A stretch of 64,000 nt of DNA from the sequence record ON184125; one strand, written 5' to 3'. The notes under the pieces were generated by a model. The model ran no database searches and was not told the origin of the DNA. It worked only from the letters and a program-made list of their open reading frames with translations. Source of the DNA: Escherichia phage PC3. Position numbers and translations under genes: made by a program. This document shows, piece by piece, positions 15,369-53,924 of the stretch. The stretch's first letter is position 1. Every line of letters begins with the position of its first letter.

Positions 15369-17387
15369 ATGTCAGATTTTAAGCCCTTCGCAGTAGCTGT
15401 CAACAATAACGTGCTGGCCATGTCAGCAACTGGTCTGTTCATGACCAACATCGATAAAGATGCTCTGTGGGATCTGTATCTGTCTTCTTTCCCTGCTGGC
15501 ACTAACCCGCTTTATCGTGAGCGTACCGAGCACGACTGCACCTGCTGTAAACAATTCATCCGTAACATCGGCGGTGTGGTCACCATCGACTCCGACCTGA
15601 ACGTGATCTCTATCTGGGATAACATTCAGCTGGGTAACGAATACGACGTTGTCGCTGCGGCGCTGTCAGCATATGTTAAGCAGCACGCAATCGTCGACGT
15701 GTACTTCAACGACACCAAGAAAGTTGGTGTTGAGTCGAATCACGAAATGAAAGACGGTATTGTCCGCACCTACAACCACTTCCACACCGACCTGCTGGGT
15801 AGCTATGTTCTGCGGGCAGATACCATCGCTTCTAAGAAGGGTGAAATCCGCCAGGCGATTGAAGTGTTTGAGCGCGGCCTGCGTGAACTGTCTCTGGAAT
15901 CGGCTGAAATCGTTCTTGAATTGATTGACCAGAATTCTCTGTATCGCGGTGAAGAGCACAAAGCGGCAGTGCAGGCGTTCGTGGTGAACAAGACCCTGTA
16001 CGAACAAACTGCAGAAGAGAAACGCGCTCTGTGGGCTTGGCGCACTGGCTACCGTGCAAACGGTCATACCCCTCACGGCATTCGTAATACCGTGATTGGC
16101 TCTCTGCTGGTAGACCTCAATGAAGGTCGGGATCTGGAAACCGCCGTGAAGTCCTTTGAAGCCAAAGTCGCTCCGACGAACTACAAGCGCCCAACCGCGC
16201 TGGTCACGAAGTCGATGATTGAAAACGCGCAGAAAGAAGTCGAAGCACTGGGTCTGACTGATTCACTGGGTCGCCGTTATGCCGTGTATGACGATCTGAC
16301 CATCAACAACGTTCTGTTCGCCGACCTAGCAGCTCAGAAGAAGATGGACCCGTTTGCTCAGCTGGCGTCTGAAGTGAAGACTCCGACCAAGTCCCTGGAC
16401 AAGGTTGAAGAGATCACGATCGACGACTTCCTGACCAACGTGTTGCCAAAGGCGCATTCCCTGGAAGTGCTGGTCGAAAACTCTCACATTGGCAACCTGA
16501 TGTCCCTGATCGCTCCGGCCACCGCAGGCGCTCCTAACCTGTTCAAGTGGAACAACGGCTTCAGCTGGTCGTACAATGGCGAAGTGGCCGACTCCATCAA
16601 AGAGCGCGTGAAGACCGCAGGCGGCAATGTCGACAGCTTCCTCCGTGTGTCACTGGCTTGGCATAACAACGACGACCTGGATCTGAGCCTGAACGATCCT
16701 CTTCACAACCACGTGTATTATCACAACCGTCGTTCGACAACTGGCGCAACTCTAGACATCGACATGAACGGTATGGACGGCATTGATCCAAACCGCCGTC
16801 CGGTGGAGAACATCTTCTTCAGCGATGAACGCAAGCTGCGTGATGGTCTGTACGAGTTCTATGTCACTAACTTCAGCCAGCGTGAAACCTGTGATATGGG
16901 ATTCGAAATCGAAGTTGAATACAAAGGCCAGACCAAGCGTTTTTCGCATCCTGGCCTGAAGCACAAAGATCGCACTCTGGCTGTTGTGATTGATGTCCGC
17001 GCTGGACAAGTGGTAGACATCCGTTCTACCCTGAAAGACGACGCTCGCTCTCAGGAAATCTGGGGCATCAAGACCTCCGTCTTCCAGAAGGTACAGCTGG
17101 TTCTGAACTCACCAAACCATTGGGACGGCGAGCAGACTGGCAACAAGCACGTGTTCTTCATCCTGGAAGGTTGTGTTAACCCTGTCGGCACCCGTGGTTT
17201 CTATAACGAATATCTGAAGCCGGAACTTGATAAACACCGCAAGGTTTTTGAAATGTTAGGCAGTAAGATTAAAGTACAGCCAAGCACTGAGCAGCTGTCC
17301 GGTCTGGGCTTCTCTACCACCCAACGCAACCACGTGTTCGTGAAGGTGAGCGGTTCTTTCAACCGCACTGTGAAAGTTGTGTTCTAA
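15369..17387 (+). CDS. Hypothetical large protein (672 aa)
   Basis: Long ORF with AGGAAG + attacatcATG context; no motif I can assign. Confidence 0.55.
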   Translation: MSDFKPFAVAVNNNVLAMSATGLFMTNIDKDALWDLYLSSFPAGTNPLYRERTEHDCTCCKQFIRNIGGVVTIDSDLNVISIWDNIQLGNEYDVVAAALSAYVKQHAIVDVYFNDTKKVGVESNHEMKDGIVRTYNHFHTDLLGSYVLRADTIASKKGEIRQAIEVFERGLRELSLESAEIVLELIDQNSLYRGEEHKAAVQAFVVNKTLYEQTAEEKRALWAWRTGYRANGHTPHGIRNTVIGSLLVDLNEGRDLETAVKSFEAKVAPTNYKRPTALVTKSMIENAQKEVEALGLTDSLGRRYAVYDDLTINNVLFADLAAQKKMDPFAQLASEVKTPTKSLDKVEEITIDDFLTNVLPKAHSLEVLVENSHIGNLMSLIAPATAGAPNLFKWNNGFSWSYNGEVADSIKERVKTAGGNVDSFLRVSLAWHNNDDLDLSLNDPLHNHVYYHNRRSTTGATLDIDMNGMDGIDPNRRPVENIFFSDERKLRDGLYEFYVTNFSQRETCDMGFEIEVEYKGQTKRFSHPGLKHKDRTLAVVIDVRAGQVVDIRSTLKDDARSQEIWGIKTSVFQKVQLVLNSPNHWDGEQTGNKHVFFILEGCVNPVGTRGFYNEYLKPELDKHRKVFEMLGSKIKVQPSTEQLSGLGFSTTQRNHVFVKVSGSFNRTVKVVF

Positions 17388-17825: not shown

Positions 17826-17854
17826 AACCCCGCCATGTGCGGGGTTTCTTTTGG
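17826..17854 (+). terminator. Rho-independent terminator
   Basis: aaccccgc-catgt-gcggggtt stem-loop followed by TCTTTTGG. Confidence 0.7.
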
Positions 17855-17863
17855 ACAAAGAAT

Positions 17864-18238
17864 ATGAAACCTGTCATTTGTGATTACTGCGGCCTCCCAG
17901 CCGAATTCGTCGGTGGTGATGTTCTCTACCCTCATCGCCCTGACCTCCGCAATCTGAAGTTCTGGGTGTGCACTCCATGTGATGCCCGTGTCGGTTGCCA
18001 TACCCATGGCGACGGCAGACAACCTTTGGGAAGGATGGCGAATGCCGCTCTCCGTGCTGCTAAGCAGGAAGCCCATAGATCGTTTGACCCATTGTGGAAA
18101 AGCGGAGAGAGGAGCAGGAGCGACGCTTATAGTTGGCTGGCGCATAAGCTGGGGATAAAGAAGCGTGAGTGTCATATTGGCTTGTTCGATATCGACATGT
18201 GCCGTAAAGTAGTGGAGGTCTGTAAACAAATATCATAG
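17864..18238 (+). CDS. Zinc-ribbon protein (paired CxxC motifs)
   Basis: CDYCG ... CTPCD ... C.H cysteine pairs; ORF 17837-18238 trimmed to MKPVICDYCG. Confidence 0.45.
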   Translation: MKPVICDYCGLPAEFVGGDVLYPHRPDLRNLKFWVCTPCDARVGCHTHGDGRQPLGRMANAALRAAKQEAHRSFDPLWKSGERSRSDAYSWLAHKLGIKKRECHIGLFDIDMCRKVVEVCKQIS

Positions 18239-18246
18239 GATAACAC

Positions 18247-19119
18247 ATGACAAATCGTACTGGCATAAAACTCACTCCTGAAGTCCTGAAGTCACATATC
18301 GCTGAGGTGATTTACGAAGACCGCGAAGTCGGCGGTCACCGGGCTATCACTTGTCATTTCAAGATGGATAACGGCTTCGTCGTTCACGGCACCAAGCCCA
18401 GCACATCCATAGACCCGGCCAACTTTGATGAAGCCCTGGGCAAAGAGATTTCCTACAATAATACCTTCGACCAGCTGTGGCAGCTCGAGGCGTACCGGGC
18501 GCTTGTTGAACAAGATCTGTTGGCCAAAGCCACGGAAACGGCAGAGATCCGGATCGATAAATACGCTGTTGAACGTAGCGCCCTCTATCCGGCCTATCAC
18601 CTCGGCTTCAATGTGATGATTCAGGACGTGATGTTCAGAGCGGAAAATGGCGAGCGCTTCTTGGCGTCTTTCGTTTGTGGGCCGGATGACATGGAACTTG
18701 TTGTTGAATCTCACAACGCCAAATCTCGTAAGGCTGTTAGTGATTTCCTGCGCGCCAACTCCAAACTCGATCTCACTTATTCGCCATTGGTTCTGCGCAT
18801 CGCCAAGATTTGTCATGAAGCCAACCGCGCATACTGTAAGTCTGTTGGTGACGACTCTCAACTGCCTTGGGAACAATCTCCGGCCTGGCAACGTGAGAGC
18901 GCTTGCAAAGGTGTTATCTTCCATCTCACTGGTGATCGTAAGCCCAGCGAATCACATGAGAGATGGATGGCGGAGAAGGAGTCTGAGGGTTGGGTGTATG
19001 GCCCAGTCAAAGACCCTCAGACCAAACAACACCCTTGCATGGTTCCGTATGGAGAACTCCCGGTACAACAACGCTCCAAAGATTATATTTTCAAATCCAT
19101 TGTAGACTCCTTTAAATAA
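18247..19119 (+). CDS. RyR-domain-containing protein
   Basis: C-terminal GWVYGPVKDPQTKQHPCMVPYGELP matches the RyR-domain signature as I recall it. Confidence 0.5.
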   Translation: MTNRTGIKLTPEVLKSHIAEVIYEDREVGGHRAITCHFKMDNGFVVHGTKPSTSIDPANFDEALGKEISYNNTFDQLWQLEAYRALVEQDLLAKATETAEIRIDKYAVERSALYPAYHLGFNVMIQDVMFRAENGERFLASFVCGPDDMELVVESHNAKSRKAVSDFLRANSKLDLTYSPLVLRIAKICHEANRAYCKSVGDDSQLPWEQSPAWQRESACKGVIFHLTGDRKPSESHERWMAEKESEGWVYGPVKDPQTKQHPCMVPYGELPVQQRSKDYIFKSIVDSFK

Positions 19120-19153
19120 GCTCTGAATAATATTTCAACCTGTCAATAATATA

Positions 19154-19186
19154 ATGCCCGGTTATATTCAATCGGGCATTTTTATT
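19154..19186 (+). terminator. Rho-independent terminator
   Basis: atgcccg-gttatattcaat-cgggcat stem-loop followed by TTTTTATT. Confidence 0.7.
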
Positions 19187-19193
19187 ATATTAA

Positions 19194-19224
19194 TTGACAT
19201 CAATACCGCCTGTCGTAATATAAT
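19194..19224 (+). promoter_or_regulatory. Sigma70-like promoter (TTGACA, 17-19 bp spacer, TATAAT)
   Basis: ttgacatcaataccgcctgtcgtaatataat just after a terminator and upstream of ORF 19270. Confidence 0.45.
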
Positions 19225-19269
19225 AGTTCCATGTTGAAATAGTTGGGAAATATAACTCACGAGAGCCTG

Positions 19270-19446
19270 ATGACCGACAACAAATTAAAACGTGCCGGAC
19301 TTGATTGTCTTGACAAATCATTCCGCCCCAGTGATGTTCTGGTCGCCCAAATGGAAAACAACCGGGATTTCATTGAAACTATGCTGGAGAACGCCGACGC
19401 GAACTCCAAACACTCCAAAGCCCAAAAAGGTCAAAACGATGATTGA
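19270..19446 (+). CDS. Hypothetical small protein (58 aa)
   Basis: ORF 19243-19446 trimmed to ATG after GAGAG; overlaps start of vWA gene by 8 nt. Confidence 0.3.
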   Translation: MTDNKLKRAGLDCLDKSFRPSDVLVAQMENNRDFIETMLENADANSKHSKAQKGQNDD

Positions 19447-21640
19447 ATCATTAACATTTAAGAATGCGGTTGCGACCGTCGCGCCGTCTAACCATGTAAT
19501 CGTTGTGGATATCTCCGGTTCCATGTATCGTTCACTTCCAGAAGTCCGTAAGCATCTGAAGGAGAACATGCCTTCCCTGGTGAAACCCGAAGATACTGTG
19601 AGCATCCTTTACTTTTCATCTCGCGGTGATTTCGGAACGGTATTTGCCGGGCGTCAGATCGGTGCCGCATCTGACCTGAGCGAGCTGAACAAACTGATCG
19701 ATCGCTTCCTGCAACCGTCCGGATGTACTGGCTTTGTTGAGCCGTTGAAACTGGCAATGGACACTGCTCGTGGCCTGAAGAAGCCTGGCTATGTCAACAA
19801 CCTGGCGTTCATGACTGACGGGTATGACAACTGCTGGCGTACCAACGAAATTCTACTGGTTGCTGAGACCCTGCCATTTGCTTTCGATAACATTACATTT
19901 ATCGAATATGGCTGGTACTGTAACCGCGAACTGCTGGCGCAGATGGCCGAACGCTCTGGTGCTACTCACGTGTTTGCCGAAGGTCAGACCGAATACCAGA
20001 CCGAGCTGGAAAACGTGCTGAAGTCATCAGTGCCGAAGGTGGTTGTTGATGTGCCTCTGCTATACACCCACGCCATCTATGTTGAAAACGGCGTAGCAAC
20101 TGTTCTGGCGGTACAGCCGGATGAAGACCATCCTATCGGCCACGTGAGCATCCCTGAGAGCGTCGCCAAGCTGTGGGTTGTAAACCCTAACATGATCGAC
20201 CAGCTTGATGCGCTGGCGGATATCCAGGCGGCATACGTGCTGGCGTTCTACGGCGTACACATTATGGACGCGGACCTGGTGTGGGCTGCACTGAAGAAAA
20301 CGGGTGACGTTCGCTTCATCAAACAGTACAGCAACTGCTTCACCAAGCAGGACTACTCCAACATCAAAGTTGATCTGACCCAGGCCATCGTTGATGACCA
20401 GCTGCGCGGCGTTGACGGTATTGACTATGACCTGGTTCCGGCTGAAGATGCGACGACCGTCGTTGACGTGCTGACGTATCTGGCTGAAGCTGGCGTGTGT
20501 GTTGCTACCAAACATCCTATGTTCTCCTACAAGAGCATCGGGCGCGGTACTGTGCAGAAAACCGACGACACCGAAGACAAGCTGGCAGAACAGATCGCGA
20601 ATGCTCAGTCCAAAGAAGAGCGTAAAGCCCTGGCTCTCAAGCTGGCAGAGCACGAAGAGTGGAACCCGACGTTCGAACCTACCAACGACCTGGGTGTTGT
20701 GCCAATCAGCGATTTGGTCTATAACTCCGAGCGCCCGAACATCAGTGTGCGTACAATTCAACACGGTACTGTGGCTGTGCCTGAATTCGCACAGAAGAAG
20801 TTTGGCCTGCCTGAAGAACTGGATACTTTCCAGTGGCGCAACTACACCATCGTCAAAGACGGTATCATTAACGTGAAGACTCTGCCGTTCAAGGCTGATA
20901 TCGAAGTTGTACAGAAGCTGATCGAAATGGGTGTCCACGTGTTTGGTGGTCCGGAAGTGTTTGTCCTGAACCTGGAAAGCGTACCGCTGGTCAACCGCGC
21001 CATGGTCAAAAACATCAGTGCTGCTCAGTTCTTTGCGGATAATGTCCGTCTGGAAGCCCTGAAAGGCAAGCAGAAGGTGCTGAAGTTCTATCGAGACGCC
21101 CTGGTTGGTAAGGGTAACGCCAAAGGCCTGGCAGTACAGTACGGCGCTGAGGCGGCCGAGTTCCTGTCCTCCTACGGTATCCGCGATTACGGCTTCTCAC
21201 CGAAGACTGAGACCAAAGAGTCTACCGACTTCTACATGAGCCGTGAGCTGAACGTTAAGATCGCCGGGGCGTCTTCACTACCGAGCATCGCGGCAGTACA
21301 GAAGAAGATTGCCGAGAACAAGAAACTCAATGCTGGTGACTTGTTCATCGCTAATGCGCTGAAGGAGTACGAAGCATTCGTGAAGTCTCCTATGATCACT
21401 GCCGTGCCTGAATCCTTACAGAAATATCTGATCGAAAACTGGATCGACGCTGCTGCCAAGGCGGCCATCACCGAAGTCCGCGCCCTGAACAAGACACTGT
21501 CTAAAGTGGTTTATGGTATCGTTGCTGGTCATGGCTGGTTCACCGACCTCGACCTGGAAGAGTCCACCATGGAAGTTGAAGTGGATGGCGTGAAGTACAA
21601 GGTCACTGCCGAACTGACAGAGAAAGAAATCAAAATCTAA
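19439..21640 (+). CDS. von Willebrand factor A (vWA) domain protein (733 aa)
   Basis: N-terminal VVDISGSMYRS ... FMTDGYDN (MIDAS-like DxSxS and downstream acidic motif); ORF 19292-21640 trimmed to MIESLTF. Confidence 0.55.
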   Translation: MIESLTFKNAVATVAPSNHVIVVDISGSMYRSLPEVRKHLKENMPSLVKPEDTVSILYFSSRGDFGTVFAGRQIGAASDLSELNKLIDRFLQPSGCTGFVEPLKLAMDTARGLKKPGYVNNLAFMTDGYDNCWRTNEILLVAETLPFAFDNITFIEYGWYCNRELLAQMAERSGATHVFAEGQTEYQTELENVLKSSVPKVVVDVPLLYTHAIYVENGVATVLAVQPDEDHPIGHVSIPESVAKLWVVNPNMIDQLDALADIQAAYVLAFYGVHIMDADLVWAALKKTGDVRFIKQYSNCFTKQDYSNIKVDLTQAIVDDQLRGVDGIDYDLVPAEDATTVVDVLTYLAEAGVCVATKHPMFSYKSIGRGTVQKTDDTEDKLAEQIANAQSKEERKALALKLAEHEEWNPTFEPTNDLGVVPISDLVYNSERPNISVRTIQHGTVAVPEFAQKKFGLPEELDTFQWRNYTIVKDGIINVKTLPFKADIEVVQKLIEMGVHVFGGPEVFVLNLESVPLVNRAMVKNISAAQFFADNVRLEALKGKQKVLKFYRDALVGKGNAKGLAVQYGAEAAEFLSSYGIRDYGFSPKTETKESTDFYMSRELNVKIAGASSLPSIAAVQKKIAENKKLNAGDLFIANALKEYEAFVKSPMITAVPESLQKYLIENWIDAAAKAAITEVRALNKTLSKVVYGIVAGHGWFTDLDLEESTMEVEVDGVKYKVTAELTEKEIKI

Positions 21641-21645
21641 TCCAA

Positions 21646-21670
21646 CGGGCGGGGCAACCCGCCTTTCTTT
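21646..21670 (+). terminator. Putative rho-independent terminator
   Basis: ggcggg-gcaa-cccgcc stem followed by TTTCTTTGG. Confidence 0.5.
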
Positions 21671-21681
21671 GGAGTAATAAC

Positions 21682-22005
21682 ATGAGCAGTAAACCAACAT
21701 ATGTTGAAGTCATGCGTCATCTGGCTCAGTACGCCACTGACAATCTGAATATGGATCTGTGGCGTGACGATGACAAGCGCAAATTGCTGGACGACGTGGC
21801 ATCTCAGAACGAGGACGCCCTGGACAAGCTGGCTGGTCTCCGTACCAAGAAAGACCTCGGCGGTGACGAACTGGATGCCATCGAAATCGTAATGGAACTA
21901 GAAGAAGAGTTTCAGGTCGAAATCGACGACGGGTGGCTAGGTAGTAAAGGCGATGACCCGACCATGGGTGAACTCGCTGAACTCGTGGTTGCCCTGCGCA
22001 AATAA
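21682..22005 (+). CDS. Acyl-carrier-protein-like four-helix protein lacking the phosphopantetheinylation serine
   Basis: DLGGDELDAIEIVMELEEEFQVEIDD parallels ACP [20 protein letters not shown] but has DEL in place of DSL. Confidence 0.5.
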   Translation: MSSKPTYVEVMRHLAQYATDNLNMDLWRDDDKRKLLDDVASQNEDALDKLAGLRTKKDLGGDELDAIEIVMELEEEFQVEIDDGWLGSKGDDPTMGELAELVVALRK

Positions 22006-23277: not shown

Positions 23278-23727
23278 ATGTTCCTTACATCCTTTATTGA
23301 CTGGTTGAACATCATTAACGGCCTGAGGATCCCTGTTGGGAACCTCGGGCTTTCGCGTTCTTCTATGCCACAAATCGATGCCGACAAACAAGAAGATTTT
23401 CACAAATATCTTGAAGACAACGGCGTGTCCATAGATGCTGTACAAGTGCCCATCAAAATGCTTCGTCTCACCCAGAACGAAATCAACAAGATGAAGGTCT
23501 GGAAGATCATGAAGAACATCAGAAATAAGAAACCTATGGGTCGAGTTTGGGTGTCTTCTGACAATTACGTTGTTGACGGTTCTCACCGATTTGTCGCTGC
23601 GTTGAACATGGACGGCAAACAGCGCATGAAGGTCTACAAAGTTGATTTGCCAGCGATGGAATTTGTTAAACTCGCTAAACAGTTTCAGGGTGTGCGATAC
23701 AGAACGGTCAGCGATACTCGTTTCTGA
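23278..23727 (+). CDS. ParB-like nuclease domain (ParBc/Srx-like) protein
   Basis: VVDGSHRFVAA matches the ParB-like DGxHRxxA signature; GAGG SD. Confidence 0.5.
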   Translation: MFLTSFIDWLNIINGLRIPVGNLGLSRSSMPQIDADKQEDFHKYLEDNGVSIDAVQVPIKMLRLTQNEINKMKVWKIMKNIRNKKPMGRVWVSSDNYVVDGSHRFVAALNMDGKQRMKVYKVDLPAMEFVKLAKQFQGVRYRTVSDTRF

Positions 23728-39606: not shown

Positions 39607-39614
39607 TATAAATA
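39607..39614 (+). promoter_or_regulatory. T4-type late promoter-like box TATAAATA
   Basis: Exact TATAAATA about 24 nt upstream of ATG 39638, just after a stem-loop. Confidence 0.45.
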
Positions 39615-53399: not shown

Positions 53400-53924
53400 A
53401 TGCGCGGATTTTGTTTTAGTGAAATAGGCAAAGAACTGTCTATACAATATCCCGATCCCAACACAGACTTCTTTATCTTCCTGACCGATTATGCCAAGAA
53501 AGAGAATATCCTCCATGTGGCAATGAAACACGAAGATTATAAGTTCTGTCGGCTGGGTGTCAAAGACCTGCTGCGTTATGGTCTACAAGTGGTCATCGTA
53601 GACCCATACTACAGCCCTATCGACGATGAAGAAGTTCTACCCGTATATGTTCACCGCAACATCAATACATTGGACAAGCATTATCCAGATTGTATTGTCA
53701 TCGGCGAACTCATCTCGTATTACCATCGTGTGCGAAAGCTGGAACAGATTAAAAGTTATTTTCAAGAGGGTGTTGGTCAATATAAGATGAATGCCCTTAG
53801 TAGTGGATGGATGGTGCTGTCTTCAGCAGGCAGTGCTGACTATATTAAGATGCGTGTCTACCAATACGTTGTGGAGCGCGATTATGAACTGGAGAAAAGT
53901 AATGCAAAACGAAAAACCCGTTGA
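53400..53924 (+). CDS. Hypothetical protein (174 aa)
   Basis: Divergent from minus gene at 53350; second ATG chosen for SD spacing. Confidence 0.4.
   Translation: MRGFCFSEIGKELSIQYPDPNTDFFIFLTDYAKKENILHVAMKHEDYKFCRLGVKDLLRYGLQVVIVDPYYSPIDDEEVLPVYVHRNINTLDKHYPDCIVIGELISYYHRVRKLEQIKSYFQEGVGQYKMNALSSGWMVLSSAGSADYIKMRVYQYVVERDYELEKSNAKRKTR

Follow-up and report, generated by a model that had tools for sequence, protein, structure and literature searches.

The 64,000-nucleotide stretch of Escherichia phage PC3 (sequence record ON184125) analysed here, hereafter the window, carries a two-gene cassette composed of a 58-codon open reading frame (ORF) and a gene for a 733-residue protein with an N-terminal von Willebrand factor A (vWA) domain. 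The explanation that we tentatively prefer is that the larger product serves as a conserved adaptor for protein–protein contacts, dependent on its MIDAS (metal ion-dependent adhesion site), made before the late proteins and possibly present in low copy number in phage particles. Window positions 19100–21700 are 100% identical to Escherichia phage PH4 (ON184126.1, Ackermannviridae), in which the two ORFs are annotated as PH4_000051 and PH4_000052, and subtracting 32000 from a coordinate of that record gives the window coordinate. The source phage is ViI-like, belonging to Ackermannviridae, and a T4-type phage is excluded although T4-like replication genes are present. An earlier note on this DNA, written without database searches, had described the 733-residue ORF together with a small overlapping upstream ORF, and both are indeed there, sharing 8 nucleotides, AACGATGATTGA.

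Domain organization of the vWA protein

The vWA domain proposed in the earlier note, with the MIDAS motif DISGSMYRS, was confirmed by a Pfam PF00092 match of 27.3 bits against a cut-off of 23.8, covering residues 20–184 of the protein, and the domain has the vWA alpha/beta fold. The motif occupies residues 24–32 (nucleotides 19508–19534) and is intact. Among 39 aligned family members, the Pfam models VWA_2 and VWA matched 34 and 20 sequences, respectively, while D24, S26, S28, T97 and D127 are invariant in all 39; the DxSxS signature is kept in 135 of 138 full-length members, and the other three look like N-terminally truncated gene calls. Moreover, the family profile aligns the MIDAS residues with the metal ligands D46, S50, T110, T135 and D136 seen in the crystal structure of ArnB (PMC12852372). 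The MIDAS is complete, and metal-dependent ligand binding is predicted from these residues. NCBIfam gave only weak generic vWA matches for the 733-residue protein.

The vWA domain is followed by a beta-sandwich and a short helical domain, and these three domains together are common to the longer matches of the phage protein; residues 1–320 can therefore be regarded as a module of the ArnB/Sec23-24 type. The same combination is discussed in the ArnB paper as the “Sec23/24 core motif” (PMC12852372). The earlier note had taken some 550 residues behind the vWA domain to be unknown, which holds for most of them after domain searches and structure prediction, but about 125 belong to the beta-sandwich and helical domain of this core.

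The remaining C-terminal module of about 410 residues is specific to the family, was seen in one architecture only and has no known relative in PDB, Pfam or BFVD. Sequence searches of PDB with the single protein, a whole-family profile and a C-terminal profile returned nothing past the vWA domain, a Pfam scan of 54 family members (39 + 5 + 10) returned vWA models only, and Foldseek against BFVD returned orthologs only, all of them uncharacterised and one from Bacillus phage SP-15. The module is predicted to have a mixed alpha/beta structure that includes a pair of long helices; its C-terminus is a conserved beta-hairpin with ...KEIKI as the last residues, and a separate structure model of residues 196–733 reached a pLDDT of 90 and a pTM of 0.80. 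A HMMER search with residues 321–733 against 1.84 billion representative proteins gave 1,020 clusters at E ≤ 0.001, 299 of which were at E ≤ 1e-30; among the best 150 matches, the module nearly always forms the C-terminus of a protein of 680–815 residues, behind an N-terminal part of about 310–390 residues, and a profile search agrees with this picture. Some metagenomic members of 390–530 residues are without the vWA part, and in Escherichia phage vB_EcoM_KWBSE43-6 the vWA homolog is annotated as two ORFs. As a whole, the 733-residue protein is predicted to be soluble and acidic (pI 5.1), with neither a transmembrane segment nor a signal peptide.

Distribution and selection of the family

A word-index search recovered 190 mostly full-length homologs, down to 32% identity, and the family comprises about 1,000 clusters at 50% identity; in PHROGs the protein belongs to phrog_2426, function unknown. 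When the C-terminal module was used in a tblastn search, 503 phage records were found, taking in all Ackermannviridae groups, Rhizobium and Agrobacterium phages, Bacillus phage SP-15, and T4-like Klebsiella, Citrobacter and Enterobacter phages (KP27, Matisse, Miller), while Vibrio phages are also among the carriers of the family architecture. The vWA gene is one of the 114 genes that make up the core genome of ViI-like phages (PMC10892097, Table 5). It is not a T4 gene, in line with the earlier note, which had placed it outside the T4 core, but it is a core gene of the ViI-like phages and is present in some T4-like phages as well. A link to thymidine hypermodification, suggested by the presence of the gene in Bacillus phage SP-15 and ViI-like phages, was dropped because T4-like Slopekvirus and Pseudotevenvirus phages carry it too.

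Outside Ackermannviridae, no recurrent neighbour was seen at four metagenomic loci and in phage Miller, where the gene stands alone among small hypothetical genes, or in two bacterial genomes; the context of the few copies in bacterial genome assemblies is uninformative. The vWA protein therefore probably acts alone or with a conserved partner encoded at a non-adjacent locus.

The ratio of nonsynonymous to synonymous substitution rates (dN/dS) of the vWA gene is 0.07–0.10 in comparisons with Maynard, CBA120, phiDP23.1 and 0507-KN2-1, and 0.04–0.11 across the four regions of the gene that were tested, which is below that of the acyl carrier protein (ACP) gene and of the neighbouring gene for a 123-residue protein. 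Such strong and uniform purifying selection points to a constrained function, unlike that of an arms-race gene. The comparison with Salmonella phage Maynard over 18200–21700 also revealed mosaic identity, which is 96–99% at 18200–19700 (the gp49/RyR gene, the intergenic region, the small ORF and the first ~90 vWA codons) and again at 21480–21680, and only 74–92% within the vWA gene, a pattern that suggests recombination break-points inside it. PH4 is labelled Aglimvirinae, yet in this region its identity to a Kuttervirus is about 93% across 12 kb.

The two-gene cassette and its transcription signals

The 58-codon ORF is a real gene, and its product belongs to a 58-residue family, phrog_11447, with an E value of 6e-45 (PHROGs). 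The peptide is 47% identical in CBA120 and 42% identical in phiDP23.1, whose annotation merges it with an upstream ORF, and it is present in 0507-KN2-1 without being annotated. In PH4, CBA120, phiDP23.1 and 0507-KN2-1 alike, the peptide ends in ...NDD and a stop codon over the vWA ATG, and this conserved overlap suggests that the two products may be translationally coupled. In the T4-like phage Miller and in contigs of marine phages, the genes that lie 5' of the vWA homologs bear no relation to the 58-codon ORF, and on these comparisons the peptide is an accessory confined to Ackermannviridae.

A hairpin with a T-run lies on either side of the two genes (Table 1), which therefore form a terminator-bounded unit, and the Maynard and LIMEstone1 records have a terminator annotated at the position matching the 3' one. 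The 5' terminator, which ends the upstream gp49/RyR gene, is flanked by inverted TAATATAAT/ATTATATTA copies. In the intergenic region 19139–19225, a direct repeat CCTGTC(A)ATAATATAAT occurs in two copies, and TAATATAAT occurs three times (two on the + strand and one on the - strand), flanking the hairpin, with this 9-mer found nowhere else in the 64 kb. In having a terminator and then a promoter, the region is reminiscent of the promoter/stem-loop cassettes that are thought to mediate module shuffling in T4-type phages.

The earlier note had placed the vWA gene behind a terminator and a TTGACA/TATAAT promoter, and both elements are present. The pattern TTGACA-N15-19-TATAAT occurs twice in 64 kb as against 0.01 expected, and an alternative -10 element, TAATAT (19216–19221), would shorten the spacer to 16 nucleotides with only 4 of 6 matches. 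The other perfect pair in the window, TTGACA-N16-TATAAT at 53536–53563 on the - strand, is located within PH4_000098, a + strand gene, in its 5' part, and is directed towards a - strand operon of gp5-like (OB + CHAP) and gp25-like baseplate proteins; if that pair works as a promoter, the sigma70 consensus in this phage need not mean a non-structural early gene.

The T4-type late promoter TATAAATA was not found upstream of the vWA gene, the nearest + strand copy being at 39607, nor in the 11 kb around the vWA ortholog of the T4-like phage Miller, and its absence from both loci fits pre-late expression. A late motif of the cyanophage type, ATATAATA, overlaps with the -10 region, though it cannot be judged as a late signal because only three copies are present in the window and 2 of 100 shuffles reach three. 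No Ackermannviridae transcriptome was found in a literature search. Taken from these signals, transcription of the vWA gene probably precedes that of the late genes or proceeds independently of it; that an early promoter drives the gene, as the earlier note had it, is inferred rather than read from the sequence.

Table 1. Positions of the cassette, its signals, the parts of the vWA protein and the following gene in the window
Feature	Position	Strand	Remarks
Intrinsic terminator (hairpin + T-run) ending the upstream gp49/RyR gene	19153..19180	+	-15.7 kcal/mol, z -4.5
Sigma70-like promoter element	19194..19224	+	TTGACA 19194-19199, TATAAT 19219-19224, 19-nucleotide spacer
58-aa ORF, PH4_000051	19270..19446	+	ATG 19270 to TGA 19446
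733-aa ORF (vWA gene), PH4_000052	19439..21640	+	ATG 19439 to stop 21640
vWA domain, aa 1-196	19439..20026	+	Complete MIDAS
MIDAS residues	D24, S26, S28 19508-19522; T97 19727-19729; T126-D127 19814-19819	+	
Beta-sandwich (aa 197-250) and short helical domain (aa 251-320)	20027..20398	+	Completes the ArnB/Sec23-24 type core
Family-specific C-terminal module, aa 321-733 and stop codon	20399..21640	+	
Intrinsic terminator closing the cassette, before the ACP gene	21647..21664	+	-18.5 kcal/mol, z -3.4
ACP gene (PP-binding; phrog_4154)	21682-22005	+	After the cassette terminator

Possible roles of the vWA protein

Building on the reading frames, domains, MIDAS conservation, constant architecture, distribution and selection described above, a mechanism for the adaptor can be proposed. 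The 58-residue peptide would be translated together with the soluble, acidic 733-residue protein, and an acidic side chain of a conserved partner would complete the Mg2+/Mn2+ coordination at the MIDAS, while the beta-sandwich, the helical domain and the C-terminal module might provide extra surfaces for binding or oligomerisation. The vWA protein could thereby hold together or assemble a conserved complex of the infection programme, acting as a constrained “housekeeping” component and not as a fast-evolving counter-defence weapon, and a few copies may travel with the particle.

Several points weigh against this proposal. The adaptor mechanism is drawn by analogy from what MIDAS-type vWA domains do in general. 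As for the promoter, its spacer is off the optimum, and the element is not kept across the family: the -35 element is TTGGCA in Maynard, the intergenic region differs in CBA120, and at the matching position a promoter is missing from phiDP23.1/LIMEstone1 and from Klebsiella phage 0507-KN2-1. In ViI-like phages generally, neither early promoters nor a late consensus have been identified (Kutter et al., PMC3184105), with only eight sigma70-like promoters reported for CBA120 (PMC3184105). Moreover, LIMEstone1 and phiDP23.1 share 99.9% identity over the gene region, and the phiDP23.1 protein is in turn 91.7% identical to the PH4 protein; particles of LIMEstone1 were reported to contain “ORF108 vWa containing protein, 81.06 kDa” with 6 unique peptides and 11.4% coverage, which is in the range of the baseplate proteins gp27 and gp6 (PMC3296691), and the GenBank record labels this ortholog, which is 92% identical, a “confirmed structural protein”. 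The detection in LIMEstone1 virions is easier to reconcile with a role in the particle than with one played only inside the cell.

The same observations bring forward the most serious competing explanation, which is possible though less probable than the adaptor, namely that the vWA protein is a true virion component, either a low-copy head protein ejected with the DNA, as T4 Alt is, or a minor accessory of the tail or baseplate, in which case the vWA domain would bind a structural partner or a ligand on the host surface. The LIMEstone1 peptide count stands out from that of the four proteins which its authors regarded as unexpected, each represented by 1 peptide and less than 5% coverage (PMC3296691), and a vWA domain in a baseplate/fibre protein of phage 0305phi8-36 provides a precedent. 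In addition, a nearby 149-residue ORF (23278–23727) with a ParB/sulfiredoxin-type DGSHR motif has orthologs that are apparently associated with particles: 11 spectra from virions were assigned to Sajous1 gp192, “ParB N-terminal domain” (PMC10892097), and LIMEstone1 ORF101 is a “confirmed structural protein” in GenBank, so the replication-region gene block does encode proteins that are found in particles. On the other hand, CsCl-purified Sajous1 virions yielded a single spectrum of the vWA protein, as they did for the clamp loader, dUTPase and ACP, as against hundreds for the major virion proteins (PMC10892097), and the published virion proteomes thus disagree on its presence in the particle. 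A virion identity, which the earlier note had set against its own proposal of an early role, accordingly finds backing in LIMEstone1 and not in Sajous1. The gene is also located in the replication cluster without a late-type promoter of T4, no solved virion component resembles its product, and the strong conservation across phages of very different hosts is unlike that of receptor-binding proteins.

An early role in host takeover or anti-defence, which the earlier note had favoured, is unlikely; the vWA protein would then be a non-virion effector, with a host protein captured by way of the MIDAS. The sigma70-like promoter behind a terminator would suit such a role, as would the position of the Miller gene, which belongs to a group of small hypothetical genes that share one direction and face the other way from the baseplate genes, and the complete MIDAS suggests that a protein ligand might be captured. 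However, PADLOC returned nothing at E ≤ 0.1, no known counter-defence gene was seen in linkage with the vWA gene, and the uniformly low dN/dS and the core-gene status are atypical of an arms race, while the virion detection in LIMEstone1 speaks against a non-virion protein. Furthermore, one architecture is shared by phages of Enterobacteria, Rhizobium, Vibrio and Bacillus, and this constancy across diverse hosts makes a lineage-specific host defence target unlikely. The proposed role has no specific support.

Very improbable is a co-chaperone or chelatase-type vWA subunit working with a MoxR-class AAA+ ATPase (as in CobT/ChlD, NorD, ViaA and the tail-assembly pair of Acidianus two-tailed virus), since a search covering the window and five distant loci found no MoxR, AAA_3 or AAA_5 gene adjacent to the vWA gene or its homologs, none of the large ORFs left unannotated in the window encodes an AAA+ protein, and the vWA domain is N-terminal here (residues 1–196 of 733) instead of C-terminal as in CobT/ChlD. 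A Ku70/Ku80-like identity was also considered and rejected, because Ku70 (8ag4_A) aligns over 203 residues that correspond to the vWA domain only and the C-terminal model has no Ku match.

Comparison with known vWA proteins

Among the closest known systems, ArnB and ArnE (vWA2) of Sulfolobus, as well as the structural-genomics protein 4fx5 of Catenulispora, are about 16% identical to the phage protein, and ArnB is without the ~410-residue C-terminal module. ArnB functions in the regulation of archaeal motility, whereas the context of the phage protein is viral, and neither an ArnA-type FHA/zinc-finger partner nor a kinase context is evident; no FHA gene was noticed in scans of the window, which included no dedicated FHA search. 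Sec23/Sec24 of the COPII coat are about 10% identical, with the match confined to the trunk, beta-sandwich and helical “core motif”; the phage protein has neither their zinc finger nor their gelsolin domain, as it has no Pfam matches to these and its C-terminal model matches Sec23/24 nowhere beyond the beta-sandwich, and unlike COPII, a membrane coat, it has no membrane-coat context. The likeness to inter-alpha-trypsin inhibitor heavy chain H1 (ITIH1, 6fpy) is limited to the vWA core, and ITIH1, which is eukaryotic and secreted, carries a VIT domain and differs at the C-terminus.

For comparison outside the vWA proteins, the packaged and ejected T4 Alt offers a functional analogy only, in that a large non-structural protein whose gene is not part of the structural module may still occur in particles at low copy, as the LIMEstone1 mass spectrometry suggests for the phage protein. 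There is no sequence or fold similarity between the two, and the virion evidence for the phage protein is inconsistent between studies.

Proteins with vWA domains have already been described in viruses, such as MoxR-vWA chaperone pairs and TerF/TerY (PMC7824862; bioRxiv 10.1101/2021.03.02.433402). The phage protein differs from these in architecture and is without a MoxR partner, a peptidase fusion or ter genes, and its family is not mentioned in these surveys of viral vWA proteins (PMC7824862; bioRxiv 10.1101/2021.03.02.433402).

Genes surrounding the cassette

All genes around the cassette are on the + strand, and the setting is one of replication and nucleotide metabolism. On the 5' side, the order is sliding clamp, clamp loader, RegA, MazG-like pyrophosphohydrolase, two proteins of unknown function with 406 and 672 residues, a 123-residue protein, a DUF3268 zinc-finger protein and a gp49/RyR-domain protein, after which the cassette is followed by the ACP gene, small ORFs, a helicase, RNase H, gp55 and gp47/46. 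In Ackermannviridae, the ACP gene is always 3' of the vWA gene with a terminator between them; no acyl-ACP synthase or other fatty-acid gene was noticed in its surroundings, where no dedicated search was made.

The gp49/RyR gene (18247–19119) encodes a 290-residue protein that combines an N4 gp49/Sf6 gp66 family domain (residues 9–84) with a ryanodine-receptor RyR domain (residues 235–279). The DUF3268 zinc-finger gene lies two genes 5' of the cassette, at 17837–18238, and in a metagenomic phage contig of 218 kb another DUF3268 gene (2432–2989) is separated from the vWA homolog by about 7 kb; given that the ArnB partner ArnA binds via a zinc finger (PMC12852372), this might be a lead or a coincidence. 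The 672-residue protein (15369–17387), phrog_1735, has no match in Pfam, NCBIfam or PADLOC and carries conflicting annotations (“DNA-directed RNA polymerase”, “SAP domain”, “galactose-binding”). Its full-length homologs occur in 557 phage records of widely differing types, including phiCbK, Bastille-like Bacillus phages, Pseudomonas phage Zuri, and Vibrio and Microcystis phages, and it was rejected as a partner of the vWA protein because its distribution among phages differs.

Significance of the vWA family

The family is already annotated as “VWA domain-containing protein” and would be no surprise for specialists, while its function is described in no paper that was found. The new elements are the domain analysis, how large and constant the family is, and the question of its presence in virions. 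The family is among the larger uncharacterised ones of big tailed phages and is a core gene in Ackermannviridae phages that are used for biocontrol and phage therapy. The MIDAS module in the N-terminal third, the confidently predicted 410-residue C-terminus without a solved relative, and the conflicting virion proteomes are starting points for finding the partner. A bolder idea, and quite an unlikely one, is that the protein represents a new particle-borne class, a low-copy MIDAS adaptor of the ArnB/Sec23-24 type with a new effector fold of about 410 residues. If true, a protein delivered with the DNA would seize a bacterial protein of high conservation just as infection begins, and such a class would be common to Ackermannviridae, several T4-like lineages and many uncultured large myoviruses.

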